This document shows positions 1 to 24,013 of a stretch of 32,000 nt of DNA, one piece after another (position 1 is the stretch's first letter; each line of letters opens with the position of its first letter). The position numbers and the translations under genes are program-made. Source of the DNA: an uncultured Alphaproteobacteria bacterium. Lineage in GTDB: Bacteria; Pseudomonadota; Alphaproteobacteria; Rhizobiales; Beijerinckiaceae. Location: NCBI GenBank assembly GCA_963759185.1, contig CAVWXV010000021.1:69247-101246 (forward strand). Reading direction: 5' to 3'. The notes under the pieces were generated by a model. It worked only from the letters and a program-made list of their open reading frames with translations, was not told the origin of the DNA and made no database searches.

Positions 1-1427
1 TGGCCGCCACCGCCGAGGGCAACGGGACCGTCGAAGTTCGTGGTCCCTCCTAAAAGCGTCAGATATTTCGTGTAAGACAGACCGAAGCGGGCATTGAACC
101 AAGGGAAGGGACCAGGGCTGCCGTGGCTGAACGGCAGATAGGCGACATCGAAGGTTATGCTGCTGCTGTTCGGACTGAGCGGATTACCGGTGGCGCTATT
201 CGTGCCGTATAAGGCGTCGGCCGAGCCCCTCACGGTATAATAGCTGGCGGTGAAGCTGTACGTGCTGTCGTAGACGTAATCCGCCGTGGCCTGGATGCTG
301 TTCAGATTGTCGCTCGGATTCGAGGTCAAGGTCTGCAGAAACGACGAATTATATTGGGCCGTTTCGTTGATGTCCGTCAGCTTGAGCTCGAATGCATGCG
401 GGCCATGAATGAACTGATATTGGGCGTCGAATCCGATGTCGAGGACCTGGTCGTTTCCGAAGCCGAAGACGCCGCCGGGTATTTCGTTGGCCAACATGCC
501 GAACGTGCCGATCATGAAACTGTGCTCACCGATCGTCGGCGCGAACGCGACCCGCCAATAAGGTGCGACGCCGTCGATGAGCGTATTGCCGGTCCCTTCG
601 CCGAGGGCGTTCTGGATTGAGTTGGAAAGACTGCGATAGCCGGTGATCTCGGCATAGATCATATTCTTCCACCACGTATAGACGCCGGCGCCCACGACTT
701 GGGCGGCGAAGAACCCTCCGCCGATCTGCGTCGTCGGCGGCGTGAAGCCAGGCCCGGTTGCCGAAGAAATATAAGGAAAGCCCCAGGCCGGCGTGGTGTT
801 CCACACATCCTGAACGGTCGGATTGTTGTTGACGTCGATGCCGTAAATAAAATCGATGCCAAAGAGTTTGGCCTTGTCGGTATAGCGGATATCCGTGTTG
901 TCGAGGGCCCACGCATGCGCCACGCCGTCATAGGTTCCCTGAATAAAGGCGCCGAGATTGCCGTAGATCGTGCCGCCGTAGAAAAGGCTCGCTTGCGAGA
1001 GAACCACGTTATCGTTCGTGTGCGTGTCCGGCGTGGGGGCCGCATCCATGTTTTTATCGAAATGCTCGAATTGCGGCCCCTGAATCATTGCCGCAATCGG
1101 CGGCGCTTTGGCGAAGGGCAGGCCGCCGCCCATCGTGTAGCCGTTGAGTTTGAACTCGCGTCCAAAGGGCGTCAGCTCGGGAAAAGCGGTGTGGCAGGTG
1201 GAACAGGGCTGCCCTGTCTGCGTCGCGAAACTCGGTATGGCCGCTGCCGGTTGCGGCTTCAACACCAGGCCGACGCAGAGCAGCGCGCCGGCGACGGCTG
1301 CGAGCCTGCCGAAGGCAATCCCGTTCCCCAGGCGACGCGAGGCATCATTGCCGGTGCCGGTTCCTTGGCGCCCGTCGAGCGATTGGCTCGCGGCGGCGTA
1401 AACCGGATTCGAAGATGTGGATGGCAT
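1..1427 (-). CDS. Monohaem c-type cytochrome fused to a putative outer-membrane beta-barrel (Cyc2-like fused cytochrome-porin architecture); 3' end runs off the window
   Basis: Manual reverse-complement translation stays open from ATG 1427 (alternative in-frame ATG at 1460) down to base 1, over 475 codons. It is absent from the ORF track, presumably because no stop lies inside the window. The N-terminus reads ...SRRLGNGIAFGRLAAVAGALLCVGLVLKPQPAAA | IPSFATQTGQPCSTCHTAFPELTPFGREFKLNGY, with a single CxxCH about 12 aa after a signal-peptide-like AxA site. The rest is G/Y/F/T/N-rich with strand-like alternating segments (YSFTASYYTVRG, ITFDVAYLPF, ARFGLSYTKY). The CDS call is solid; the functional class is inference. 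Confidence 0.8.
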   Translation of the reverse strand, partial: MPSTSSNPVYAAASQSLDGRQGTGTGNDASRRLGNGIAFGRLAAVAGALLCVGLVLKPQPAAAIPSFATQTGQPCSTCHTAFPELTPFGREFKLNGYTMGGGLPFAKAPPIAAMIQGPQFEHFDKNMDAAPTPDTHTNDNVVLSQASLFYGGTIYGNLGAFIQGTYDGVAHAWALDNTDIRYTDKAKLFGIDFIYGIDVNNNPTVQDVWNTTPAWGFPYISSATGPGFTPPTTQIGGGFFAAQVVGAGVYTWWKNMIYAEITGYRSLSNSIQNALGEGTGNTLIDGVAPYWRVAFAPTIGEHSFMIGTFGMLANEIPGGVFGFGNDQVLDIGFDAQYQFIHGPHAFELKLTDINETAQYNSSFLQTLTSNPSDNLNSIQATADYVYDSTYSFTASYYTVRGSADALYGTNSATGNPLSPNSSSITFDVAYLPFSHGSPGPFPWFNARFGLSYTKYLTLLGGTTNFDGPVALGGGG

Positions 1428-1528
1428 GGTCTCTGGCCCCCCAATCGTACCATCGATCATTGCGCGTGACGATAGTTAAAAGACTTACACCTGGTTAGGC
1501 ATTATGCAAACGCGAAATCAGACCGGTC

Positions 1529-1542
1529 TTGAGCTAGCTCAG
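1529..1542. promoter_or_regulatory. Candidate FNR/FixK/CRP-family box (TTGAGCTAGCTCAG; perfect 12-bp palindrome TGAGCTAGCTCA) in the divergent cytochrome-barrel / HiPIP intergenic region
   Basis: The sequence matches TTGA-N6-TCAA with one mismatch (TCAG). It lies about 70-110 bp upstream of the minus-strand cytochrome-barrel start and about 190 bp upstream of the HiPIP start. The call rests on the sequence pattern only. Confidence 0.3.
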
Positions 1543-1733
1543 AAAAATCTAGACACCTGCGACAAAGTTGCAATGCCGGATCGGCGCTGATTTGAGCTCA
1601 ATCAACAATAGATCGTCTGTCGCTTTTATTGTCTCTTCTGTGACGGCCGGTGCATATGCGGACCTCCAAATTCGATGTTGTGTTGCCGGACCGTGATTCG
1701 TGTGCGCCGGCACGCCTTTGGAAGGGATCGACC

Positions 1734-2006
1734 ATGACAAAACCATGCCAAGCGAAGTGTGACGCGGGTCGGCGCAATTTTCTGCAGAAGGCTCTCGCAG
1801 TTGCCGCTTCGGTGCCGGTGATCGCCATGACCGTCCGTGCTGCACAGGCGATGCAGATCTCAAAATCCTCAGTCGCTTATCAGGGTACGCCCTATGAAGG
1901 CAAAATCTGTGCACAGTGCCGCCTGTTCTCGGCGCCGCATTCCTGCCAAGCCGTCGAAGGCTCCATCAGTCCGAAGGGCTGGTGCAGGCTGTGGGCGACG
2001 GGCTGA
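1734..2006 (+). CDS. High-potential iron-sulfur protein (HiPIP) with twin-arginine signal
   Basis: Product: MTKPCQAKCDAGRRNFLQKALAVAAS... with the Tat motif RRNFLQ. The C-terminal part is ...GKICAQCRLFSAPHSCQAVEGSISPKGWCRLWATG, giving the four-Cys HiPIP pattern CxxC...C...GWCxxW. The internal ATG at 1734 is preferred over the ORF-track start at 1650. Confidence 0.85.
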   Translation: MTKPCQAKCDAGRRNFLQKALAVAASVPVIAMTVRAAQAMQISKSSVAYQGTPYEGKICAQCRLFSAPHSCQAVEGSISPKGWCRLWATG

Positions 2007-2258
2007 CGCTCTCTCATGCGCCGACCGTCGCTTCTAGGGGGTCGACAAGCCCTCTTCTTGCAGCAGAACAGAAGTGCGAAAGCGCCATGAGGATCGATTT
2101 GAGTTTAATAAAGAGCAGGTCTTTGTTGTCCTCTATTGTATATCAGTGCGATGAATGATGCGTATAGAGCCGTCGCTCGCAAAGTTACAGGAACAACGAC
2201 AAGCGGAATTTCACATTCGGATGAGCCGGAACCGTTGCGATGTTTGGAGAGACCCAGC

Positions 2259-2387
2259 ATGACAAAGCCATGTGAAGGGGATCGTGACGACGCACGGCGC
2301 AGTTTTCTGCAGACGGCTCTCGCTGTTGCCCCGCCGGATCGCCCGCCGCCGATGCGGGGCGCCGACGGTGCGACGCCATCTCCATAA
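2259..2387 (+). pseudogene. Decayed duplicate of the HiPIP 5' end (leader/Tat signal only)
   Basis: MTKPCEGDRDDARRSFLQTALAVA... parallels MTKPCQAKCDAGRRNFLQKALAVA of the HiPIP at 1734. The upstream DNA is also alignable (gatttgagctcaatcaac.. at 1589 versus gatttgagtttaataaag.. at 2096). After the signal peptide the frame gives PPDRPPPMRGADGATPSP-stop, and I could not recover a Cys-cluster domain in any frame. Confidence 0.55.
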
Positions 2388-2568
2388 GCCGCCTCGCCGA
2401 CGAAGCCGTCAGAAAATCGCCGGCCTATTTTAGCGCGTATGCGCCCCGTCCCCGGCCTTCTGAGTGTCATTCGCACTGCAGCGCCTCAACGGGGTCGAGT
2501 GCTGCGACTTTTCGCGCAAACGGGAGCGGAGCTAATTCCGTTATCGGCGTTGGCCAAGAAATCTCAGA

Positions 2569-3183
2569 CTATCGTTCGGAGGAATTGTACTCGACAAAGC
2601 TCAGATATGAAGCGAGGGCCTCAATTTCGTGTGGGGACAAGTTCCTCGCAATTCGGGGCATGGGCCCTGCGGCCGCGTGAAACCCTTCGCCCCACTGCTC
2701 GAGCCTCCTTTTCAAGTAGGAATACCCCAATCCTCCCAAACGGGGAATTTCTCTAACTCCCTCAGCATGCGGGGCATGACAAACAAGGCAGGCCGGAATA
2801 TTGGCATCCGGAATCCCCAGTTCATATATCTTACTTCCTGCGGCTACCAACGCCCCATCTCCGTCTTTAGCGGCTTCGGGAGGCAGCGTCGAAAAATAAG
2901 TTGCGAAGTCATGCGCCATCTCCGGACTGACATTTGCCGCGGCAGCCCACATATAATCTTTCGAATACGGATTATCTCGGATGTGCTCGCGAAAGTTCAG
3001 CAGCTGATTTTCGATGTATCGATGTCTCTGTCCGGCCAATCGTGGCGCGCTCGCAAATCCTTGGGCCGATATTCCATGGCACCACGTGCAATTGCGGACG
3101 GGGACGGACTCACCTGCCAACAGCGGACCGGCGGCAGAAGAAACAATCGCCAGGATTGCTATTTTTGATTTGATGAGTTTCAT
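2569..3183 (-). CDS. Dihaem cytochrome c (c4-type, class I)
   Basis: The 204-aa product has an N-terminal signal (MKLIKSKIAILAIVSSAAGPLLA) and two CxxCH motifs (CTWCH, CLVCH), each followed by the PRLAGQ / PRLGGL segment typical of c4 half-domains. Confidence 0.85.
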   Translation of the reverse strand: MKLIKSKIAILAIVSSAAGPLLAGESVPVRNCTWCHGISAQGFASAPRLAGQRHRYIENQLLNFREHIRDNPYSKDYMWAAAANVSPEMAHDFATYFSTLPPEAAKDGDGALVAAGSKIYELGIPDANIPACLVCHAPHAEGVREIPRLGGLGYSYLKRRLEQWGEGFHAAAGPMPRIARNLSPHEIEALASYLSFVEYNSSER

Positions 3184-3241
3184 GATCCAGATTCTCGCGC
3201 TTTACGCATATCGAAACCGGTGACCTGCAAAACAACCGAGT

Positions 3242-3889
3242 TCACTTCAGATAGCTGAGATAGGCCGCGAGGGCGGCGATCTGTGGTTGGGTCAAGTTAT
3301 GTGTGGTCGGCACCATAATGGCCGATATATCTTTCGCCGAACCTTGACCGCGCTCTTTGCTCCAATTGGTCAATACTTTTATGATGTACCAATAGAGTTG
3401 GCCTGCCAACCGGGGAATTTCGCCGTGACCCTTGGCCTCCGGACCATGACAAGCGAAGCACGCAGGAACGTTGGCTTCGGGTAATCCCTCCTCGAAGATT
3501 GTTTTTCCCAAGGCCCGGGACTCCCTGGGAGCCTCCCCAAATGGATTAGGATTTAGATCCTTGAAATGCGCGGCCAATCCCGGAATCATCGACGAACTCA
3601 GGCCGTGGGCCACGTTAAACATGATGGGGTTCGTCCGTCGGCGCTCAATAAAGGCCCGCAACTGATTTTCAATATACTCGGGCTGCTGCCCGGCGAGTTG
3701 CGGGATGGTAAAATATCCACGATAACCCTGCCCCGACAGCCCATGGCAGGTTTTGCAATATTCCAACTTAGCCTGAAGCTGTTGCTTCGAGGAGCCGTCC
3801 GCGCCCCTGTCGTCCGCGCGAGCCGCCGCGGAAAGGGCAATAGCGAAGACTGCTGTTTGCAATGCCAATCGTAAACTAAAGACCTTCAT
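3242..3889 (-). CDS. Dihaem cytochrome c (c4-type), paralogue of 4747..5397
   Basis: Starting at MKVFSLRLALQTAVFAIALSAAARA (ATG 3889) places GGAGG 6 nt upstream. Two CxxCH motifs are present (CKTCH, CFACH). The ORF-track start at 3943 adds an unlikely 18-aa extension. Confidence 0.85.
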   Translation of the reverse strand: MKVFSLRLALQTAVFAIALSAAARADDRGADGSSKQQLQAKLEYCKTCHGLSGQGYRGYFTIPQLAGQQPEYIENQLRAFIERRRTNPIMFNVAHGLSSSMIPGLAAHFKDLNPNPFGEAPRESRALGKTIFEEGLPEANVPACFACHGPEAKGHGEIPRLAGQLYWYIIKVLTNWSKERGQGSAKDISAIMVPTTHNLTQPQIAALAAYLSYLK

Positions 3890-3943
3890 GACCAGCCTCC
3901 GCGCCCTTCGTTTTGTGTCATTGTCCAGCTGACCTTCGTGCAA

Positions 3944-4442
3944 TCCAGTGGACGCTGGACTTGAGCGGCTTTTCGCTTAATTTGCGCTGGCGGCTTTGGC
4001 CCTTGAATGGCCATTGTCGGGACGTTGATCGAGAGTTCGGCGCGGATAGGATCACGCATCGCCCAGCCTTTAATCCTCCTGGAGCAAAGATTGAGCATGG
4101 TCTCCAGATAGAGCCAGCCTTCATCGGTTGGCACATCGGTGATAAGTGTGAAGCGTCCGGGGTGGAATAGAAAACGACAATTGCGTTCCATCGCGCGCAT
4201 TCCAGCTATGACACGCAATGTGCCCGTGCCTCATGATAAACAGTCACGTGGACCGCTGCCAATTCAATGCCGACGATCAAGCAAATTTCATCAATGCGAT
4301 GCATTTCGGCAACAGCCGAGTGATGCGGGCGATCCGCCCAGAATCCCGTGCGTGGGATCGCTTTATGACGGCGGGATTCGAACTTGCCAGATATGTATGC
4401 GCCGTTACGGTTCAGGTAAGGGTTGAGGTCACTCGCTGCCAT
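3944..4442 (-). mobile_element. IS3-family transposase remnant (fragment of the DDE/rve core, no intact ORF)
   Basis: ORF 3886..4218(-) contains ...ITDVPTDEGWLYLETMLNLCSRRIKGWAMRDPIRAELSINVPTMAI. This matches the conserved IS3 OrfB segment (D-I/V-T-Y-I...EGWLYLAxVxDLxSRxIVGWAM...). The downstream HSDRGSQY region is missing, and no terminal inverted repeats were identified. The outer limits of the remnant are uncertain. Confidence 0.55.
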
Positions 4443-4746
4443 AGGTTACAATGTTTACGATCCTTGCATTGCCAATCTCGGCTGCGATTGGAGAATATGT
4501 CCGAGGCGTCAGTGCGTCAGAGGGGGCTCAACCAAAAACCGTCAACGCCAACTCCCGACGGCGCCGAAACTTGCGCCCGGTCGTTCGTTTGGACGGCCCA
4601 ATGTCGGCGGAGCGGGCCGCCGCCGACATCGCGGTTGCGGCGCGCCAATCTTCTGTCAGTGGCCGGTGCCCCAAGCGGGCGCCAGTGGTGGTCTCGATCA
4701 GCGTGTCGGTCATGTAGTGGCGAGAGATAATGTTGGAGGGGGGATC

Positions 4747-5397
4747 ATGAAAATCATTAGCTTAAAGTCCTTGTCGTACGCCGCAATTCTTGCAATTGTT
4801 TTCGCTGCGTCGGGCCGCGCGGAAGAAAGCAGTACGGACACCGTTTCGAAGCAAGAGCTTCAAGCTAAGATAGTGTATTGCAAAACGTGCCATGGGGTGT
4901 CGGCGCAAGGTTTTCGTGGAGCTTTTCCAATACCACGACTGGCGGGGCAGCAGCCCGAATATATTAAAAATCAGTTGCGGGCCTTTATTGAGCGCCGACG
5001 GACGAACCCCGTCATGTTTAGGGTGGCGCACGTCTTGAGCCCGTCGATGGTCGCGGGCTTGGCCGCGCATTTCAAGGATCTAAATCCTAAACCAGTAGGT
5101 GGGGCTCCAAAGAAACTCGTGGCCGAGGGAAAAACAATCTTCCAGGAAGGACTTCCCAGCGCCGATGTTCCACCATGCGCGTCCTGTCACGGTCCAGAGG
5201 CTAAAGGCAACGGGGAATTTCCGCGGCTGGCCGGTCAGCTCAATGACTACATCATCAATAAGCTGGTGAATTGGAACAAAGAGCGGGGTCAGAATCCCGC
5301 AAAACCAGACACATCAGCTATTATGGCGCCGATCGCGCACCAGTTGACGGAGCAGCAGATTGCAGCTGTCGCTGCCTATCTCAGTTATCTGGAGTAA
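4747..5397 (+). CDS. Dihaem cytochrome c (c4-type), paralogue of 3242..3889
   Basis: The start MKIISLKSLSYAAILAIVFAASGRA (ATG 4747) is preceded by GGAGGGG. Two CxxCH motifs are present (CKTCH, CASCH). The product aligns over its full length with the 3242..3889 product. The ORF-track start at 4423 adds an Arg/Gly-rich non-protein-like extension. Confidence 0.85.
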   Translation: MKIISLKSLSYAAILAIVFAASGRAEESSTDTVSKQELQAKIVYCKTCHGVSAQGFRGAFPIPRLAGQQPEYIKNQLRAFIERRRTNPVMFRVAHVLSPSMVAGLAAHFKDLNPKPVGGAPKKLVAEGKTIFQEGLPSADVPPCASCHGPEAKGNGEFPRLAGQLNDYIINKLVNWNKERGQNPAKPDTSAIMAPIAHQLTEQQIAAVAAYLSYLE

Positions 5398-5535: not shown

Positions 5536-5925
5536 TCACCGCCCCATATTGTTGAGATCCTGCGCGACGCGCTCGATTCGCGTCGCCGTTTCGTCGAGCG
5601 ACTGGGCGAGGCGATCCGCCCATTCGCCCTGCGCGCTCGTCTGATCATGCGAATCGGATTTGAGATCGGCGATCTCGGCTTCGAGTGAAGTGATTCGACG
5701 ATGTGCCTCCGCCAGTTCGTCGGCGACTGTAATGGCGGCCATGATGGTGAGGCGCTGATCGCCGATTTCGCCGAAATTCCGGCGCAGCATTTCGATTCGC
5801 TCGTCGATCTGCCGCGCGAACCCCTGGAGATGGGCTTCCTCGCCTTCGGCGCAAACCATGCGATAGGCATGGCCGGCGATCATGACCGACACTTGCGTCG
5901 CGCCGCCCTTGTCGTCAACGCCCAT
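5536..5925 (-). CDS. zapA: Cell division protein ZapA
   Basis: ...QVSVMIAGHAYRMVCAEGEEAHLQGFARQIDERIEMLRRNFGEIGDQRLTIMAAITVADEL... matches the ZapA core. The gene sits immediately downstream of a DUF4164 coiled-coil gene, as is usual in alphaproteobacteria. Confidence 0.8.
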   Translation of the reverse strand: MGVDDKGGATQVSVMIAGHAYRMVCAEGEEAHLQGFARQIDERIEMLRRNFGEIGDQRLTIMAAITVADELAEAHRRITSLEAEIADLKSDSHDQTSAQGEWADRLAQSLDETATRIERVAQDLNNMGR

Positions 5926-5944: not shown

Positions 5945-6235
5945 TCAATGCTCTTGCGCGGCAGCCTGCGCCAAGATCGTCCTGATGGTCGAACTCGCCT
6001 TGGCGAGCCGGCGCGCCACCTCGCCATTCGCCAATTCGAGCGATTTCGATCTAGCCTGGGCGTCGTCGAGTTCGAGGGCGAGGCGCGTGCGGTCGTCTTG
6101 CAACACCGCAAGCTCTTCTTCGAGGTTGCTGCGCTCTGCATCGGCCTTGAGCCGGCGCTCGCAGGCGGCTTCGAGCTGGTCGAGCGCAGCCGAAAGGTTT
6201 TTGAAGGCCAACTCAAGTTGGGCGTAAGTGCTCAT
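5945..6235 (-). CDS. DUF4164-type coiled-coil protein (ZapA-associated)
   Basis: The 96-aa product from the internal ATG at 6235 is MSTYAQLELAFKNLSAALDQLEAACERRLKADAERSNLEEELAVLQDDRTRLALELDDAQ... The upstream part of the 203-aa ORF-track version does not look like protein. Confidence 0.7.
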   Translation of the reverse strand: MSTYAQLELAFKNLSAALDQLEAACERRLKADAERSNLEEELAVLQDDRTRLALELDDAQARSKSLELANGEVARRLAKASSTIRTILAQAAAQEH

Positions 6236-6450
6236 TCGATACTGGATCTGGATCGCCGCTATTAGGCGCTCCTCCGGCGCCCTCGTCAACTCGCGAAGAC
6301 GCCAGGCCGGCAGTCGAATTGAAAAGTAACAACAACTATTTGCCCAATTCGGCTGAGACGGCTGCGAAGATCGTTGCCGAGACATGGCGCGTTTCGCAGG
6401 CAGAGGCGATCGGCGATCCGTCTCGATTCTGAAGCGAAAACGCTGTGCTG

Positions 6451-6474
6451 CAATGCACAACGAAATGCACAACG
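6451..6474. repeat. Perfect 12-bp tandem duplication (aatgcacaacga x2)
   Basis: Read directly from the sequence: gc AATGCACAACGA AATGCACAACGA tgg. Confidence 0.9.
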
Positions 6475-6836
6475 ATGGTCTGCTGTCAGCCTGCGGATCT
6501 ATTGTTTTCGCTTCGCATCGGTTCAGTCGATTTCGTCCGCATACTTCACCTGCCATTCCTATTTGGCGCGCTGCACTTGGCGTTTCGTCATTTTATTTCT
6601 AAACAGTCACCGCGACATTTTGGCCATGCATGGAAGGGCAGGGGATTCACCTGCGGCGTCTTGCGCAGCATTTGATCTCATGCAAGACAAAGGCACCCAA
6701 AGGAGCGTTGGCGCGGCGGCGATCTCGAGACGATCCTTAGGCGGGGTCGCTCAGCATCGGGAGGGTCTGTAGAAGCCCCAGGGATTTCGTGCAGATGTTC
6801 CGGGTCCAAGAATTTGAGGCAGGGCGCATTGGCTCT

Positions 6837-7490: not shown

Positions 7491-8499
7491 ATGGCGGTGA
7501 ATGTCGCGATCAATGGGTTCGGGCGCATCGGACGCAATATTTTGCGCGCGATCGTGGAATCGGGCCGAAACGACATTCGCGTCGTCGCCATCAATGATCT
7601 CGCGCCGGTCGAGACCAATGCGCATCTCTTGCGCTTCGATTCGGTGCATGGCCGCTTTCCCGGCGAGGTGAAGGTCGCAGGCGACACGATTGATGTCGGC
7701 ACTGGCCCGATCAAGGTGACGGCGCTGCGCGATCCGGCCGAATTGCCGCATCGGGAGCTCGGCGTCGATATAGCGCTCGAATGCACGGGCATATTCACTT
7801 CGAAAGAGAAGGCCTCCGCCCATCTCAAGGCCGGCGCCAAGCGCGTGCTCGTCTCAGCGCCGGCCGATCATGCGGATCTGACGGTCGTCTTCGGCGTCAA
7901 TCACGAGAAGCTGACCCGCGATCATATCGTGGTCTCGAACGCTTCCTGTACGACCAATTGCCTGGCGCCCATCGCCAAGGTCCTCAATGATGCGATCGGC
8001 ATCGAAACCGGCTTCATGACGACCATCCATTCCTATACCGGCGACCAGCCGACGCTCGACACGGTGCATAAGGATCTTTACCGCGCCCGCGCGGCGGCGC
8101 TGTCCATGATCCCGACATCGACGGGGGCGGCCAAGGCGGTCGGTCTCGTCTTGCCGGAACTGCAGGGCAGAACTCGATGGCTGCGCCATCCGCGTCCCGA
8201 CGCCGAATGTCTCGGTGGTCGATTTCAAATTCGTCGCCAAGCGGGCGACGACGCCGACCGAAATCGCAGACGCCATCAAGCGGGCGGCCGCACAGCAGTT
8301 GAAAGGCATCCTCTCCTTCACCGAGGAGAAGAATGTCTCGATCGATTTCAATCACGACCCGCATTCGTCGATTTTCCACATGGATCAGACGCGGGTCATG
8401 GATGGGACTTTCGTTCGTGTCGTTTCCTGGTACGACAATGAATGGGGGTTCTCCAACCGGATGGCCGATACCGCCGTTGCAATGGGGAAGCTGGCATGA
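7491..8499 (+). pseudogene. gap: Glyceraldehyde-3-phosphate dehydrogenase, interrupted by a +1 frameshift near 8169-8172 (authentic lesion or sequencing artefact)
   Basis: The N-terminal frame (7491...) reads [20 protein letters not shown]...[17 protein letters not shown]...VLPELQG, then turns to nonsense. The C-terminal frame, readable from about 8172 (the ORF-track ORF for it begins at 8215) to 8499, reads ..[21 protein letters not shown]...[23 protein letters not shown]. Deleting one base in ggcAGAActc restores G-(K/R)[18 protein letters not shown]. The total length is 1009 nt, which is 336 codons plus 1 nt. Confidence 0.9.
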
Positions 8500-9722
8500 C
8501 GAGATCTGCGCCTTTGGCTCCTTTTCCCACTCTTGACGATGCCCAACTTGCCGGAAAAAGGGTGCTTGTCCGCGTCGACCTCAATGTGCCGATGGAAGAC
8601 GGGCAAGTCGCCGACGCGACCCGCATGGATCGGATTCTGCCCAATCTGCGCGAGATCGCGGCCAAGGGCGCCAAAGTTATCATCTTGTCGCATCTCGGGC
8701 GGCCGAAGAATGGGCGCGACGAGAAATATTCGCTTCGTCCCGTCGTCGGCGAACTCGAAAAACGCCTCGGCAAAAAGGTCGGTTTCGCCGAAGATTGCAT
8801 CGGCGAAGCAGCCGAGGCTGCGGTGGCCGCGATGCGCGATGGCGATTATCTCCTCCTCGAGAACACCCGTTTCCACAAAGGCGAAGAGAAGAACGATCCC
8901 GATTTCGTCACTGCGCTGGCGAAGCTCGGCGATGTCTATGTCGACGATTCCTTCTCGACCGCGCATCGCGCGCATGCTTCGACGGAAGGGCTCGCCCATA
9001 AGATGCCCTCCTTCGCCGGCCGCTCGATGCAGGTCGAGCTCGAGATTTTGACCAATCTTCTGACCAGCCCGGTGCGCCCGGTGATGGCGATCGTCGGCGG
9101 CGCCAAGGTCTCGACCAAGCTCGAACTGCTCGGCAATCTGATGCGCCGCGTCGACCGGCTCGTCATCGGCGGCGGTATGGCGAACACTTTCCTCGCCGCC
9201 ATGGGCAAGGCGATCGGCAAATCGCTCTGCGAAATGGAATTCGCCGATATTGCGCGCAAGATCATGGCCGATGCGGCGGGGGCGAATTGCGAGGTCGTCC
9301 TGCCGGTCGATGTGGTGGTAGCGCCCAAATTCGAAGCGCATGCGCCGACGCGCGTCGTCGATGTCGATCATGTCGGCCAAGACGATATGATCCTCGACAT
9401 CGGCCCGAAATCGGTGGCGAAGGTCGAGGCCCTGCTCGAAACAACCCGCACGCTGGTCTGGAACGGCCCGTTCGGCGCCTTCGAAATCCCGCCTTTCGAC
9501 GCTGGGACGGTGGCGGTGGCCAAGGCTGCCGCGCGGCTCACCAAATCCGGCCAGCTCGAATCGATCGCCGGCGGCGGCGACACGATCGCGGCCTTGAACA
9601 AGGCCGATGCAGCGAGGGAGTTCACCTATATTTCGACAGCCGGCGGCGCCTTCCTCGAATGGCTCGAAGGCAAGCGCCTGCCCGGCGTCGAGGCCTTGCG
9701 CGACAACTTCCGGCAAATATGA
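8496..9722 (+). CDS. pgk: Phosphoglycerate kinase
   Basis: [33 protein letters not shown]...[14 protein letters not shown]...GGGDT... are typical PGK motifs. The ATG at 8496 overlaps the gap stop as ATGA. Confidence 0.92.
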
Positions 9723-14795: not shown

Positions 14796-14881
14796 TAGAA
14801 AGGGCGCCTCCCCTTAATCTAAATCAAAGCATCCCCATCCGCCGCCGCCATCCTCGCCGGATGACGGCGAGGTGATTCGGC

Positions 14882-15898
14882 ATGGCGAGGCGGGCACGAG
14901 TGGGTGCGGCGGGGTCTGCGACGGGACATGGCCCGAACGCGCCGGGCATCGCTCCCGAAATGACCGCCGTGCCTGCCGCCGCGATTCCGGACATTAATCT
15001 GCACCTCGCCAACAAGCTGCGCGAGGCGGCGGGGCTGCTCGCGGGCCAAAGCGACAGCCCGTTTCGGATCGCCGCCTATCGGCGTGCCGCCGATGCCATC
15101 GCCGGCCTCGACCAAGGCGTCGATCAGATCCTGGCTGAGGGCGGGGTCGCGGCGCTCGATGCGATTCCCGGCGTCGGGCGCGGCATTGCCGCGGCGCTCG
15201 CCGAAATGATCCATTCCGGCCGCTGGACCTATCTTCAACGTCTGCGCGGCGCCGCCGAGCCTGGCGATCTCTTCCGCATCATTCCCGGCGTCGGGCCGAA
15301 GCTCGCCAAGCTTCTGCATGACGAACTCCATGTCGAGACGCTCGAACAGCTCGAAGCCGCGCTGCATGATCCCAAGACGCCGCATATAAGAACGATCGGC
15401 CCGCGCCGGATCGCGCTTTTGCGCGCCTCGCTTGCGACGCTTCTCTCGCGCCTGCGCCCGGCGCCGCAGGTGCCTCTCGAAGAGCCGAGCGTCGATCTCT
15501 TGCTCGACATCGATGCCGCCTATCGCCAAGCGGCCGAGGCCGGCAGTCTGCCGAAGATCGCGCCGAAGCGGTTCAATCCGAGCGGCGAGGCCTGGCTGCC
15601 GATCATGCATGCGGAGCGCGGCCCATGGCATTTCACCGCGCTCTATTCCAACACGGCGCGCGCGCATGAGCTCGACAAGACCAAGGATTGGGTCGTGATC
15701 TATGCCCAGGCCGATCATGGCGGCGAGACCCAGCGCACCATCGTCACCGAGACGCGCGGCAAGCTCAAAGCTTTGCGAATCGTGCGCGGGCGCGAGCGGG
15801 AATGTCTGAATTTCTATGAGGCGAGCGAAAATCTGGCTTCAGCGCCGGAGCAGGGTGAGGCGCCCCCTCACCTTGCCCGCGGATGCGCGGAAAAATAA
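14882..15898 (+). CDS. Helix-hairpin-helix DNA-binding protein related to the PolX (pol beta-like) N-terminal region, without a recognisable polymerase palm
   Basis: NLHLANKLREAAGLLAGQSDSPFRIAAYRRAADAIAGL resembles the 8-kDa lyase-like domain. Two HhH motifs are present (IPGVGRGIAAALAEMI, IPGVGPKLAKLLHDEL). The C-terminal roughly 130 aa (…WHFTALYSNTARAHELDKTKDWVVIY…) have no DxD catalytic motif. The start could be ATG 14960. The 3' end overlaps xerC by 31 nt. Confidence 0.65.
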   Translation: MARRARVGAAGSATGHGPNAPGIAPEMTAVPAAAIPDINLHLANKLREAAGLLAGQSDSPFRIAAYRRAADAIAGLDQGVDQILAEGGVAALDAIPGVGRGIAAALAEMIHSGRWTYLQRLRGAAEPGDLFRIIPGVGPKLAKLLHDELHVETLEQLEAALHDPKTPHIRTIGPRRIALLRASLATLLSRLRPAPQVPLEEPSVDLLLDIDAAYRQAAEAGSLPKIAPKRFNPSGEAWLPIMHAERGPWHFTALYSNTARAHELDKTKDWVVIYAQADHGGETQRTIVTETRGKLKALRIVRGRERECLNFYEASENLASAPEQGEAPPHLARGCAEK

Positions 15899-16914
15899 GC
15901 CTCGGCGAGGCGTTTCGTGTCCACCGCCGTATAGATCTGCGTCGTCGAGAGCGACGCATGGCCCAAAAGCTCCTGGATGGTGCGCAGATCGCCGCCGCGG
16001 CTCAAGAGATGGGTCGCGAAGGAATGGCGCAGCGCATGCGGCGTCGCCGTCTCGGGTAGGCCGAGCGCGCCACGCAATCTCTCGACCGTGAGCTGGATGA
16101 TGCGCGGAGACAAAGGCCCGCCTTTGGCGCCCAGAAACAAAGGCCCGTCGGACGCAAGTGGATAAGGACAGAGAGTGAGATAGCATTCGATCGCCTGCTG
16201 TATGGGCGCGATGATCGGGACGGACCTTTGCTTGCCGCCTTTGCCGAGGATGGTGATTTGGTCGTGGCCGCCGATCGGCGCGTCCTTGCGTGTGATCGAC
16301 AGGGCCTCTGAGATGCGCAGGCCGGCGCCATAGAGAAGCAAGAGCACGGCGGCATCGCGGGCGAGCACCCATTGCGGTTGCTCTTCGCCGGCGCGGGATT
16401 TTTGATCAACGAGCGCGCGCGCTGCCGAAGCAGGCAGGGCTTTCGGCAGGCTGCGTGCCAGCTTCGGGCTGCGCAGGCCGGCGAAGGCGGTGATCCGCAT
16501 GCCGTGATTGCGCTCCAGATAGCGGGCGAAGGAGCGCAAGGCCGAGAGCTGCCGCAAGAGCGAGCGGCTGCCTGTGCCACCATGGCGCCTTGCGGCGAGA
16601 AAGCCGCGCAGATCCGCCGTGGTGAGTTTGGAAAGAAGCGCGAGGCTCGGCGTCGCGCCCATATGTTCGCAGAGAAAATGCAGGAATTGGGTGAGATCGC
16701 GGCGATAGGCGGCAAGCGTATGGGGAGACGCGCGGCGCTCGCCGGCCAGATGGCTGAGCCAGGCTTGGGCCGCGCCGGCGAGATCGGCCGCGGCCGGCGC
16801 GATGGCGAAGAGATCGGCTGCAGACGGAGATGTAGCTTGAGAAGGTCGCACCGGCTTCATGGTGAATCTATGCCGCCGCAGAGATAAAGGAAGGGTTGCG
16901 GCAGCGTCATTCAA
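15868..16914 (-). CDS. xerC: Tyrosine recombinase XerC
   Basis: WLSHLAGERRASPHTLAAYRRDLTQFLHFL... in the N-terminal region, ...LLLLYGAGLRISEALSI...GKGGKQRSVPI...HALRHSFATHLLSRGGDLRTIQELLGHASLSTTQIYTAV carries the R..HxxR..Y catalytic signature. The start could be 16860. Confidence 0.8.
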   Translation of the reverse strand: MNDAAATLPLSLRRHRFTMKPVRPSQATSPSAADLFAIAPAAADLAGAAQAWLSHLAGERRASPHTLAAYRRDLTQFLHFLCEHMGATPSLALLSKLTTADLRGFLAARRHGGTGSRSLLRQLSALRSFARYLERNHGMRITAFAGLRSPKLARSLPKALPASAARALVDQKSRAGEEQPQWVLARDAAVLLLLYGAGLRISEALSITRKDAPIGGHDQITILGKGGKQRSVPIIAPIQQAIECYLTLCPYPLASDGPLFLGAKGGPLSPRIIQLTVERLRGALGLPETATPHALRHSFATHLLSRGGDLRTIQELLGHASLSTTQIYTAVDTKRLAEAYFSAHPRAR

Positions 16915-16925
16915 AAGGGATTGGC

Positions 16926-17017
16926 GAATCCTTCTCCCGATCGCAAGTCGGGCCTGCCCGACTTGCGCTTTGAAATGACGAGCTCGGGCAAGCCCGAGTT
17001 CGGTCGGGAGAAGGAAT
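16926..17017. repeat. Family-B (ccttctccc) composite palindromic element predicted to form a three-way junction
   Basis: The outer stem is TCCTTCTCCCGA (16929-16940) / TCGGGAGAAGGA (17003-17014). Inner hairpin 1 is GCAAGTCGGGC ct GCCCGACTTGC (perfect 11 bp). Inner hairpin 2 is GAGCTCGGGC aa GCCCGAGTTC (one G-U pair). The element fills the xerC / DUF1476 intergenic space. Confidence 0.8.
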
Positions 17018-17023
17018 GCGGCA

Positions 17024-17377
17024 TTAATGCCCCTGCCCTTGCTCCTTCGCCTCGGCGGCGACGGTCATGATCTCTTCCTTCGCCTTGGCGAAAAGTTCAT
17101 CCATCTCGCGGCGGATCTGATGGTCCGAGACCGCGACATGCGCGGCATCGAAATCGGCGCGGAGCTTCTTGAAGACCGCATCGTCGCCCTCTTCCTCGAG
17201 TTCGGCGGCGATGAGGCCCGCGGCATAATCCTCCGCCGCCTCGCCGGTCTTGCCGAGCTTTTCGGCGGCCCAAAGGCCGAGCCATTTGTTGCGGCGGACG
17301 GTGGCCTTGAATTTGAGCTCTTCTTCATGCGCGAGTTTGGCCTCATAGGCCTGCTCACGCTGGTCAAATGTCGTCAT
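17024..17377 (-). CDS. DUF1476 protein (homologue of the alphaproteobacterial F1-ATPase inhibitor zeta subunit)
   Basis: MTTFDQREQAYEAKLAHEEELKFKATVRRNKWLGLWAAEKLGKTGEAAEDYAAGLIAAELEEEGDDAVFKKLRADF... closely parallels the Paracoccus zeta-subunit/DUF1476 pattern. The internal ATG at 17377 is preferred over the track start at 17527. Confidence 0.75.
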   Translation of the reverse strand: MTTFDQREQAYEAKLAHEEELKFKATVRRNKWLGLWAAEKLGKTGEAAEDYAAGLIAAELEEEGDDAVFKKLRADFDAAHVAVSDHQIRREMDELFAKAKEEIMTVAAEAKEQGQGH

Positions 17378-23629: not shown

Positions 23630-23926
23630 TCATTCGCTCATATATTTTTCGCACGCAGAGCATCCGGAGAGCGCCGAGTATTGCTCATAGACGTCCTTGA
23701 TGATGTCGGTGAAGTCTCTCCGGGTTGTGCCGCGCGGCAGCACGATCTTTCCGGCAGTAATCCTGGCATTGGCCGCCTTGTATGCCTCTTCCACATCGGA
23801 AGAACCTTCGAAATATTCGCCATCATGATATTCGCACTCCTTAAGAGTGCCAACATCCAACAGTACTCGCATCGCCTCGCAACGAAGCTCTTCAACTTCT
23901 TCCATCAATCGCTTTGCTTGGCCCAT
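23630..23926 (-). CDS. Hypothetical small protein (98 aa) with a CxC...CxxC cysteine pattern, in an AT-richer pocket
   Basis: MGQAKRLMEEVEELRCEAMRVLLDVGTLKECEYHDGEYFEGSSDVEEAYKAANARITAGKIVLPRGTTRRDFTDIIKDVYEQYSALSGCSACEKYMSE. I recognise no domain. The composition is protein-like. The internal ATG at 23926 is preferred over 23980. Confidence 0.5.
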   Translation of the reverse strand: MGQAKRLMEEVEELRCEAMRVLLDVGTLKECEYHDGEYFEGSSDVEEAYKAANARITAGKIVLPRGTTRRDFTDIIKDVYEQYSALSGCSACEKYMSE

Positions 23927-24013
23927 ATACACGAACTCCAAATTACATAGAATCCTCTCAAATGGGGTTCCGTGCAGCACATTTCAAAACCAGGATTCGC
24001 GTTTTTCCAGGTC

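Follow-up and report, generated by a model that had tools for sequence, protein, structure and literature searches.

The first 5,397 positions of the 32,000-nucleotide stretch of contig CAVWXV010000021.1 analysed here (the window), from an uncultured member of the Beijerinckiaceae, probably encode a Cyc2-type extracellular electron-transfer module, which consists of a haem-porin, an iron-sulfur protein of high potential (HiPIP) and three dihaem c4 cytochromes. Homology suggests that the module may function in Fe(II) oxidation. The gene set has already been published for related soil bacteria, and what the window adds is a further example, not a novel system, since Cyc2 together with a HiPIP and three cytochromes c was reported in Bradyrhizobium. 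The modest additions made here are the alternation of HiPIP and cytochrome trio as partners of cyc2, a history of the trio that disagrees with that of cyc2, and the enrichment of FNR-type boxes upstream of the genes. The block contains the following features:

1-1460, minus strand: gene of a Cyc2-family fused monohaem cytochrome-porin (translation, exact protein P0001, motif, AlphaFold2 barrel and Foldseek)
1592-1605, palindrome without assigned strand: putative FNR/FixK-type box TTGAGCTCAATCAA (TTGA-N6-TCAA) in the divergent cyc2-HiPIP promoter region
1734-2006, plus strand: gene of a HiPIP predicted to be exported by twin-arginine translocation (Tat), 90-residue precursor (GRRNFLQ motif, four cysteines, Pfam, NCBIfam and PDB matches)
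2259-2387, plus strand: remnant of a second, tandem HiPIP gene, with the Tat-signal part only (MTKPCEGDRDDARRSFLQTALAVA...) and without the cysteine cluster
2569-3183, minus strand: gene of dihaem cytochrome c4a, 204 residues (two CxxCH, PF00034, PDB 1h1o with E 1.5e-22)
3242-3889, minus strand, open reading frame (ORF) open to 3943: gene of dihaem cytochrome c4b, 215 residues from MKVFS (two CxxCH, PF00034, 1h1o with E 8.3e-26)
3886-4366, minus strand: remnant of an IS3-family insertion sequence (IS) transposase in the c4b-c4c spacer (rve and IS3 fragment matches, common to loci L064 and L005)
4747-5397, plus strand: gene of dihaem cytochrome c4c, 216 residues (two CxxCH, PF00034, 1h1o with E 2.8e-24)

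The block was compared with 79 loci (L002-L080) containing Cyc2 homologues, which come from Methylocapsa, Roseiarcus, Rhodoblastus, Stellaceae, Acetobacteraceae and metagenome-assembled genomes from soil and peat.

Motif, predicted fold and the published homology of its orthologues indicate that the gene at the left edge of the window encodes a Cyc2-family cytochrome-porin, as the initial annotation had proposed. Positions 1-1427 of the minus strand are translated without a stop into 475 residues. A database search identified an identical full-length protein of 503 residues (P0001), encoded on a 186-kb contig and ending in ...LAYSWLMF with a C-terminal phenylalanine. P0001 supplies the 17 residues that the window lacks, and only the last 17 codons and the stop of cyc2 are located to the left of the window. 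Possible starts of the gene are limited to the ATG codons at 1460 and 1427, and P0001 begins at 1460. The N-terminal part reads ...LVLKPQPAAA followed by IPSFATQTGQPCSTCH; the hydrophobic stretch ends with AAA, after which comes IPSFATQTGQPCSTCHTAFPELTPFGREFKLNGYT. The only CxxCH motif in the 503 residues, PCSTCH, is positioned 12 residues past the AAA/IPSF junction. The signal-like N-terminus and single haem motif that had been noticed in the truncated reading frame are present in the complete protein. The location of the protein in the outer membrane, the covalent attachment of its haem, and its Fe(II) oxidase activity are predicted from the family.

At its N-terminus, the precursor of Cyc2 is extended by about 40-50 residues of polar character, which precede the hydrophobic signal core (1265-1460, minus strand), and there is no nearer start codon. 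The N-termini of homologues are also long and unconserved. Such an extension is unusual for a signal peptide of the general secretory (Sec) pathway.

Keffer et al. 2021 (PMC8406198) defined Cyc2 proteins by a signal peptide, one CxxCH, a length above 365 residues, and a fused 16-strand porin resembling OprO/OprP. In addition, they described the motif AxPxFAR[Q/K][T/Y] just upstream of CxxCH, which they termed unique to Cyc2, and PxL four residues downstream. The window protein has a signal peptide and a single CxxCH, is 503 residues long with a predicted porin barrel, and contains the PxL motif in CSTCH-TAF-PEL. Its complete signature reads AIPSFATQT-GQP-CSTCH-TAF-PEL, so that eight of the nine positions of the upstream motif agree and threonine replaces arginine. 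The strict upstream motif is present in 96 of the 120 top matches, and the subclade closest to the window protein has methionine or threonine at the arginine position. Among 150 diverse representatives of the family, 30 deviate from the motif, either at the arginine position or by a change from phenylalanine to tyrosine, and 137 contain exactly one CxxCH. The consensus of 40 homologues is A-PSFARQTGQPC--CHTAFPELTPFGRRFKL, in which C86, C89, H90, P94 and L96 are invariant.

The CxxCH motif and at least 20 residues around it do not vary across the 40 homologues. Because the haem region is invariant, it is very improbable that the gene encodes an ordinary porin with a fortuitous CxxCH, or that the block is a decaying, non-functional island. 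All five genes of the block are intact ORFs with signal sequences, the linkage of cyc2 to genes of redox carriers is conserved, and the IS scar is old and confined to a spacer. These readings could be argued from the presence of the IS remnant and the truncated HiPIP copy within the block, from the replacement of the signature arginine, and from at least one frameshift elsewhere in the window, in the housekeeping gene gap.

The AlphaFold2 model of the Cyc2-family protein has a mean predicted local distance difference test (pLDDT) score of 70, with values of 80-90 in the strands. It contains about 17 strand segments. A search of the PDB with Foldseek returned outer-membrane porins alone, among them OmpT, MOMP, OprP and AlgE at E values of 1e-7 to 1e-5. 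The structure prediction proposed in the initial annotation produced a predicted porin barrel. However, residues 66-96, which comprise the haem peptide, have pLDDT values below 50, and therefore the model does not place the haem peptide in the pore. The Pfam search proposed as a further check was fruitless: neither Pfam nor NCBIfam contained a match to the protein or to three of its homologues, even at E values up to 10, and a profile search of PDB sequences gave zero matches. Therefore, no model in these collections matches the Cyc2-like family.

The link to characterised Cyc2 is an indirect one through orthologues. He et al. 2017 (PMC5566968) listed two Methylocapsa proteins as homologues of Cyc2 from Acidithiobacillus ferrooxidans (AfCyc2): that of M. 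palsarum NE2 has an identity of 34% and an E value of 2e-53, and that of M. acidiphila B2, with 485 residues, has an identity of 31% and an E value of 3.5e-45. The M. palsarum protein and an M. acidiphila protein of 485 residues are 56-57% identical to the window protein. A tblastn search with the window protein also identified a protein encoded on plasmid pACRY03 of Acidiphilium cryptum, with 37.6% identity over 84% of the length; Cyc2 homologues had been reported earlier from Acetobacteraceae. Within the Cyc2 family, the window protein probably belongs to the A. ferrooxidans-type cluster.

The gene transcribed divergently from cyc2 encodes the four-cysteine HiPIP with a Tat motif that the initial annotation had recognised. 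The protein scored 21.6 bits against the Pfam family HIPIP (PF01355), which has a cut-off of 22, and 60.6 bits against the NCBIfam model of Iro (NF041615), which has a cut-off of 100. The protein is classified as a HiPIP but, because of the latter score, not as an Iro equivalog. Its best match among solved structures is PioC (6xyv), with an E value of 3.7e-9 over 46 residues that cover all four cysteines. The downstream remnant repeats the start of this gene: positions 1718-1812, at the 5' end, and 2243-2337 form a direct repeat of 76% identical DNA. Tandem pairs of HiPIP genes are present in loci L011, L016 and L046, and judging from the repeat, the segment 2259-2387 is a relic of such a pair.

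Each of the three c4 proteins matches PF00034 in two stretches and contains two haem motifs, as is required of a dihaem cytochrome c4, and the proteins can be aligned over their full length to the c4 structures 1h1o, 1etp, 6q2u and 8uf3. [quoted passage not shown] The c4 cytochromes are predicted to be Sec-exported, and they are closest to the A. ferrooxidans Cyc1 kind. The identities that the initial annotation had given to the carriers are thus retained. The c4a orthologues in other loci match with E values from 1e-67 to 1e-113. The genes of c4b and c4c are inverted paralogues with 76% nucleotide identity, and their products share 67% of residues. A recent local duplication of c4 genes around the IS was considered and rejected, since many genomes contain an orthologous trio arranged in the same way, and the identity between c4b and c4c is as low as 67%.

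The transposase sequence in the middle of the block had been called an IS3 remnant from the first inspection, and the searches agree. The reading frame 3886-4218 on the minus strand matches rve (E 2.5e-4) and an IS3 transposase (E 1.4e-6), both under the cut-off. The alignment extends over about 50 residues of the rve core, positions 223-273 of the 369-residue transposase. A blastn search matched the sequence to an annotated IS3 transposase on an Azospirillum plasmid. The intact transposase with terminal inverted repeats that would characterise an IS3-family element is not present, and this is a remnant and not an element. DNA of the same remnant occupies the c4b-c4c spacer in loci L064 (76% identity) and L005 (70% identity). 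A recent insertion was therefore rejected; the scar, common to these loci at the same position, is old and travels with the trio.

A 1324-bp contig from another public sequencing run (L001, Logan SRR28002569) is 100% identical to window positions 2252-3575, which include c4a and part of c4b. The same strain or module is therefore present in a second sample.

The association of cyc2 with the carrier genes is conserved among the 79 loci. A HiPIP gene is located within 1 kb of cyc2 in 48 of them, and 16 contain the orthologous trio of c4a, c4b and c4c (E 1e-67 to 1e-121). Where the sequence extends for at least 3 kb on both sides, which is the case in 57 loci, a HiPIP gene or the trio is present in 48. 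Both together occur in only two homologous loci, L008 (M. palsarum NE2) and L054. HiPIP and c4 trio are therefore largely alternative neighbours of cyc2, and the window is of the rare type with both. The order c4c (minus), c4b (plus), c4a (plus), optional HiPIP, Cyc2 (plus), which is the flipped order of the window, was found in about ten loci. Clustering of all neighbouring ORFs in the 79 loci identified nothing else that is conserved, notably no oxidase. The conservation of the linkage across many genomes supports the proposal that cyc2, HiPIP and c4 genes form a functional module.

Cyc2 homologues are also located on plasmids. The 354-kb plasmid NZ_CP107559.1 of Methylocystis sp. MJC1 from an alpine peat bog encodes one with 45.6% identity to the window protein (L081, 235455-254942), followed by three c-type cytochromes, with an IS66 element upstream and a regulator of the Crp/Fnr family about 4.6 kb downstream. 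On the conjugative plasmid pACRY03 of A. cryptum JF-5 (L082, 1-9637), the Cyc2 homologue has a transposase and a c-type cytochrome with one haem as neighbours, and is adjoined by two genes of U32-family peptidases and one of an SCP2-domain protein. These three genes are presumably related to UbiU, UbiV and UbiT of oxygen-independent ubiquinone synthesis. The A. ferrooxidans plasmid record CP084173.1 gave match statistics identical to those of pACRY03, which could mean that both records represent one plasmid or that one of them is misassigned.

The closest published counterpart is a gene cluster for Cyc2, a HiPIP and three periplasmic cytochromes c in a Bradyrhizobium sp., which came from an enrichment that oxidised pyrite (Percak-Dennett et al. 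2017, cited in the description by He et al. 2017, PMC5566968). According to the same description, the three include homologues of Cyc1 and CycA1, and horizontal acquisition of the cluster was proposed. As far as the description allows comparison, the gene content is the same as in the window, and both hosts belong to the order Hyphomicrobiales. However, the nearest homologues are named Beijerinckiaceae or Methylovirgula, so that the host family appears different from that of the described cluster. The module in the window also differs from the description in adjoining zapA and in carrying the IS3 scar and the HiPIP remnant. A network study from 2023 placed Hyphomicrobiales adjacent to AfCyc2 and AfCyc1.

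The chain encoded by the rus operon of A. ferrooxidans consists of Cyc2, Cyc1 (the c4 cytochrome of 1H1O), rusticyanin and an aa3 oxidase, together with the HiPIP Iro. It shares with the window the fused monohaem cytochrome-porin, c4 cytochromes for which 1H1O is the best match (E about 1e-22 to 1e-25), and a HiPIP as a candidate carrier. In contrast to the rus system, rusticyanin or cox genes are not linked to the module in the window, the HiPIP is not the Iro equivalog, and the orthologues of the window protein are only about 31-34% identical to AfCyc2. The genes in the window are also not one operon, and their orientations imply at least four transcription units. The Cyc2 of Mariprofundus ferrooxydans PV-1 and the family of Keffer et al. 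(PMC8406198) resemble the window protein in the signal peptide, single CxxCH, PxL motif, length over 365 residues and phosphate-porin-like barrel, whereas the window protein, with its FATQT sequence, would be kept out of their tree by the strict PxFAR filter. In the photoferrotrophy operon PioABC of Rhodopseudomonas palustris TIE-1, an outer-membrane conduit is likewise combined with a HiPIP carrier, and PioC is the solved structure closest to the window HiPIP. The conduit of that system is formed by the decaheme cytochrome PioA inside the 26-strand barrel PioB, unlike the monohaem fused porin of the window.

The initial annotation had described the block as an island of lower GC content that could be horizontally acquired. 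The lower GC content holds for the block as a whole (0.564 versus 0.617 in the rest of the window, where the lowest 5.4-kb segment has 0.602), but it is uneven. The c4 genes carry the effect, with GC contents of 0.53-0.55 and GC contents at third codon positions (GC3) of 0.546, 0.616 and 0.571. The GC3 of 21 backbone genes is 0.744 +/- 0.053, that of cyc2 is 0.745 and that of the HiPIP gene is 0.659. Expressed as z-scores, the trio deviates by -2.4 to -3.8, whereas cyc2 has a value of about 0. Low GC content of cyc2 was rejected as a sign of transfer, since its GC3 equals that of the backbone and the dip is typical of the gene: in 54 loci, cyc2 genes average 3.5 GC points under their flanks. 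We attribute this modest dip to the composition of the barrel.

The similarity of four-fold degenerate sites to those in other loci differs between cyc2 and the trio. In comparison to the closest locus, L010, the identity is 0.71 for cyc2 and 0.58-0.77 for the c4 genes. Against L005, L007 and L049 (Methylocapsa), it is 0.41-0.50 for cyc2 and 0.63-0.77 for the trio, and against L002, 0.48 for cyc2 and 0.33-0.47 for the trio. These opposite patterns indicate that cyc2 and the trio have discordant histories. The block is therefore not one uniform foreign island but two modules. A deviant composition and a history at odds with that of cyc2 characterise only one of them, which comprises the c4 trio and the IS remnant. 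The part of the earlier claim that concerned horizontal acquisition is thus supported for the trio and the IS remnant, whereas the composition of cyc2 is no evidence of transfer. The simplest reading of the data is a lateral exchange of the c4 trio among Beijerinckiaceae-like genomes. The block would then be assembled from a HiPIP-Cyc2 pair with host-like codon usage and a trio that brought its IS3 scar with it.

The divergent spacer of 306 bp between cyc2 and the HiPIP gene contains the sole exact TTGA-N6-TCAA palindrome of the 32-kb window. Boxes of this type are also enriched in the homologous loci: 27 of them, distributed over 24 of the 79 loci, are located in the approximately 1 kb upstream of Cyc2 or HiPIP genes, where shuffled sequences lead to an expectation of 0.85 and a maximum of 5. 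The enrichment is about 30-fold, and the density is 0.34 per kb versus 0.025 per kb elsewhere. A control of the 54 windows with the lowest GC content yielded 1 box. The boxes of these loci face a HiPIP or Cyc2 gene at its 5' end. The presence of the box in the promoter region and its enrichment in homologous loci suggest that the cyc2-HiPIP pair is controlled by low oxygen.

Boxes occur mostly in loci of the HiPIP type, and none is present in the trio-type locus of the Methylocystis plasmid. Searches for an Irr box of the iron control element type, for Rfam families, and for tRNA genes identified none. The published regulator of the iron-oxidation genes of A. ferrooxidans is RegBA, and the literature searched contained no publication that links cyc2 with FNR.

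Expression at low oxygen would also fit proteins that work mainly in the outward direction: when oxygen is scarce or absent, Cyc2 would pass electrons of the quinone pool or of periplasmic carriers on to Fe(III) or to some other acceptor outside the cell. The Cyc2B isoform and Cyc1 were implicated in Fe(III) reduction by acidithiobacilli, Acidiphilium and Acidocella reduce Fe(III), and the U32 peptidase and SCP2-domain genes near the Cyc2 homologue of pACRY03, if they are UbiU/V/T-like as we presume, point in the same direction. However, HiPIP and Cyc1-type c4 cytochromes are high-potential carriers and hence poor reductants, all three biochemically tested proteins of the Cyc2 family are Fe(II) oxidases (Keffer et al., PMC8406198), and no quinol dehydrogenase of the CymA/NapC type is linked to cyc2 in the 79 loci. 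We consider the outward flow of electrons quite unlikely.

Based on the homology of the components and the putative regulatory box, a mechanism of inward electron transfer through the Cyc2-type module can be proposed. Dissolved Fe(II) would enter the pore of Cyc2 and reduce the haem, in agreement with the model of Keffer et al. 2021 (PMC8406198), in which Fe(II) reduces haem inside the pore. The electron may then be taken over by the periplasmic HiPIP, a c4 cytochrome, or both. The carriers would deliver it to a terminal oxidase encoded outside the window, for which an oxidase of the cbb3 type is the likeliest candidate. Cytochromes c4 and HiPIPs are known electron donors to cbb3-type oxidases, which is why we favour an oxidase of this type, and it also fits the FixK-type box. 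Through this box, the cyc2-HiPIP pair would be switched on at low oxygen, where Fe(II) persists. In A. ferrooxidans, Cyc1 and CycA1 feed the downhill and uphill branches of electron transfer, respectively, and a similar division could explain the presence of several c4 paralogues.

Several points weigh against Fe(II) oxidation by a Cyc2-type module. The window protein has threonine in place of the signature arginine, and its haem peptide is modelled with low confidence. Keffer et al. (PMC8406198) call the function uncertain for homologues distant from the three tested proteins, and many hosts of close homologues (Methylocapsa, Ralstonia, Burkholderia) are organisms without known iron oxidation (He et al. 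2017, PMC5566968). The window has no oxidase, bc1 complex or cupredoxin linked to the module, and the 79 loci have none that is conserved. The FNR box suits an anaerobic, reductive role, with electron flow in reverse, equally well.

Another reading is a Cyc2-type conduit that plays no role in iron respiration. It might instead accept electrons from another extracellular or periplasmic reductant, such as Mn(II), Cu(I) or reduced humic quinones, or detoxify Fe(II) where the soil is acidic and rich in iron, with no conservation of energy. With 4978 representatives at 50% identity clustering and E values up to 0.001, and 733 with E values up to 1e-30, the family is very large, and it is often present in organisms for which iron oxidation is not known. 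Both He et al. (PMC5566968) and Keffer et al. (PMC8406198) allow other functions, and the lack of a linked oxidase or bc1 complex fits such roles. However, there is nothing positive in favour of another substrate, and for each of the three components of the module, the nearest relative that has been characterised belongs to a system of iron oxidation. A role unrelated to iron respiration is therefore unlikely, and we prefer the reading of the block as a Cyc2-type module with Fe(II) as its probable electron donor.

Cyc2 is the main candidate marker of microbial Fe(II) oxidation, and its function was tested in only three distant proteins. The locus by itself changes little, since it adds one further uncultured carrier from the Hyphomicrobiales to a published module. 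The comparative picture is possibly more useful: a conserved HiPIP-Cyc2 core, a c4 trio that is a separately moving, partly plasmid-borne accessory, and FNR/FixK-type boxes associated with the pair. It leads to the testable prediction that, in culturable carriers (Methylocystis sp. MJC1, Methylocapsa palsarum NE2 and M. polymorpha RX1, for example), the pair is induced at low oxygen and delivers electrons to a high-affinity oxidase. We tentatively speculate, with considerable doubt, that Hyphomicrobiales of acid soil and peat, among them relatives of methanotrophs and of methylotrophs (Methylocapsa, Methylovirgula, Methylocystis, Roseiarcus and Rhodoblastus), widely run a microaerobic Fe(II)-oxidising chain under FNR/FixK control. 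In this chain, the periplasmic partners of the Cyc2 pore would be interchangeable: a HiPIP in some genomes, a c4 trio acquired by lateral exchange in others, and in rare cases, as in the window, the two together. If this were true, the cycling of iron and of one-carbon compounds in peat would be connected in a way that has so far not been recognised.

To the right of the block, sequence searches assigned two genes:

5536-5925, minus strand: zapA
5945-6556, minus strand: gene of a DUF4164 protein

The position of zapA beside the block is as first annotated. In all of the 79 loci, the surroundings of the module lack both zapA and a DUF4164 gene, which indicates that the chromosomal site differs between genomes. 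The remaining part of the window contains housekeeping genes, namely gap, pgk, fba, purS/Q/L, pyk, and the genes of ribosomal protein L36 and a glutaredoxin. The ORFs checked there include no terminal oxidase, bc1 complex, rusticyanin or other cupredoxin, in line with the initial annotation.

The gap gene (7491-8500, plus strand), encoding glyceraldehyde-3-phosphate dehydrogenase, contains a one-base frameshift near position 8165, after ...LPELQG, and the remainder up to about 8498, which encodes the C-terminal part, is read in a different frame. Since gap is a housekeeping gene, the frameshift looks like an assembly or sequencing indel, and other small indels are possible in the window. The lowest GC content in the window (0.50-0.52; GC3 0.58) belongs to a small gene at 23633-23983 on the minus strand, which encodes a domain related to ea8.5 of phage lambda. 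The gene is situated in a local GC dip between a glutaredoxin gene and that of a FAD/NAD-binding reductase, and may represent a small foreign insert. At 14876-17064, a gene of a helix-hairpin-helix protein on the plus strand and one of a tyrosine recombinase of the phage-integrase/Xer type on the minus strand overlap at their 3' ends.

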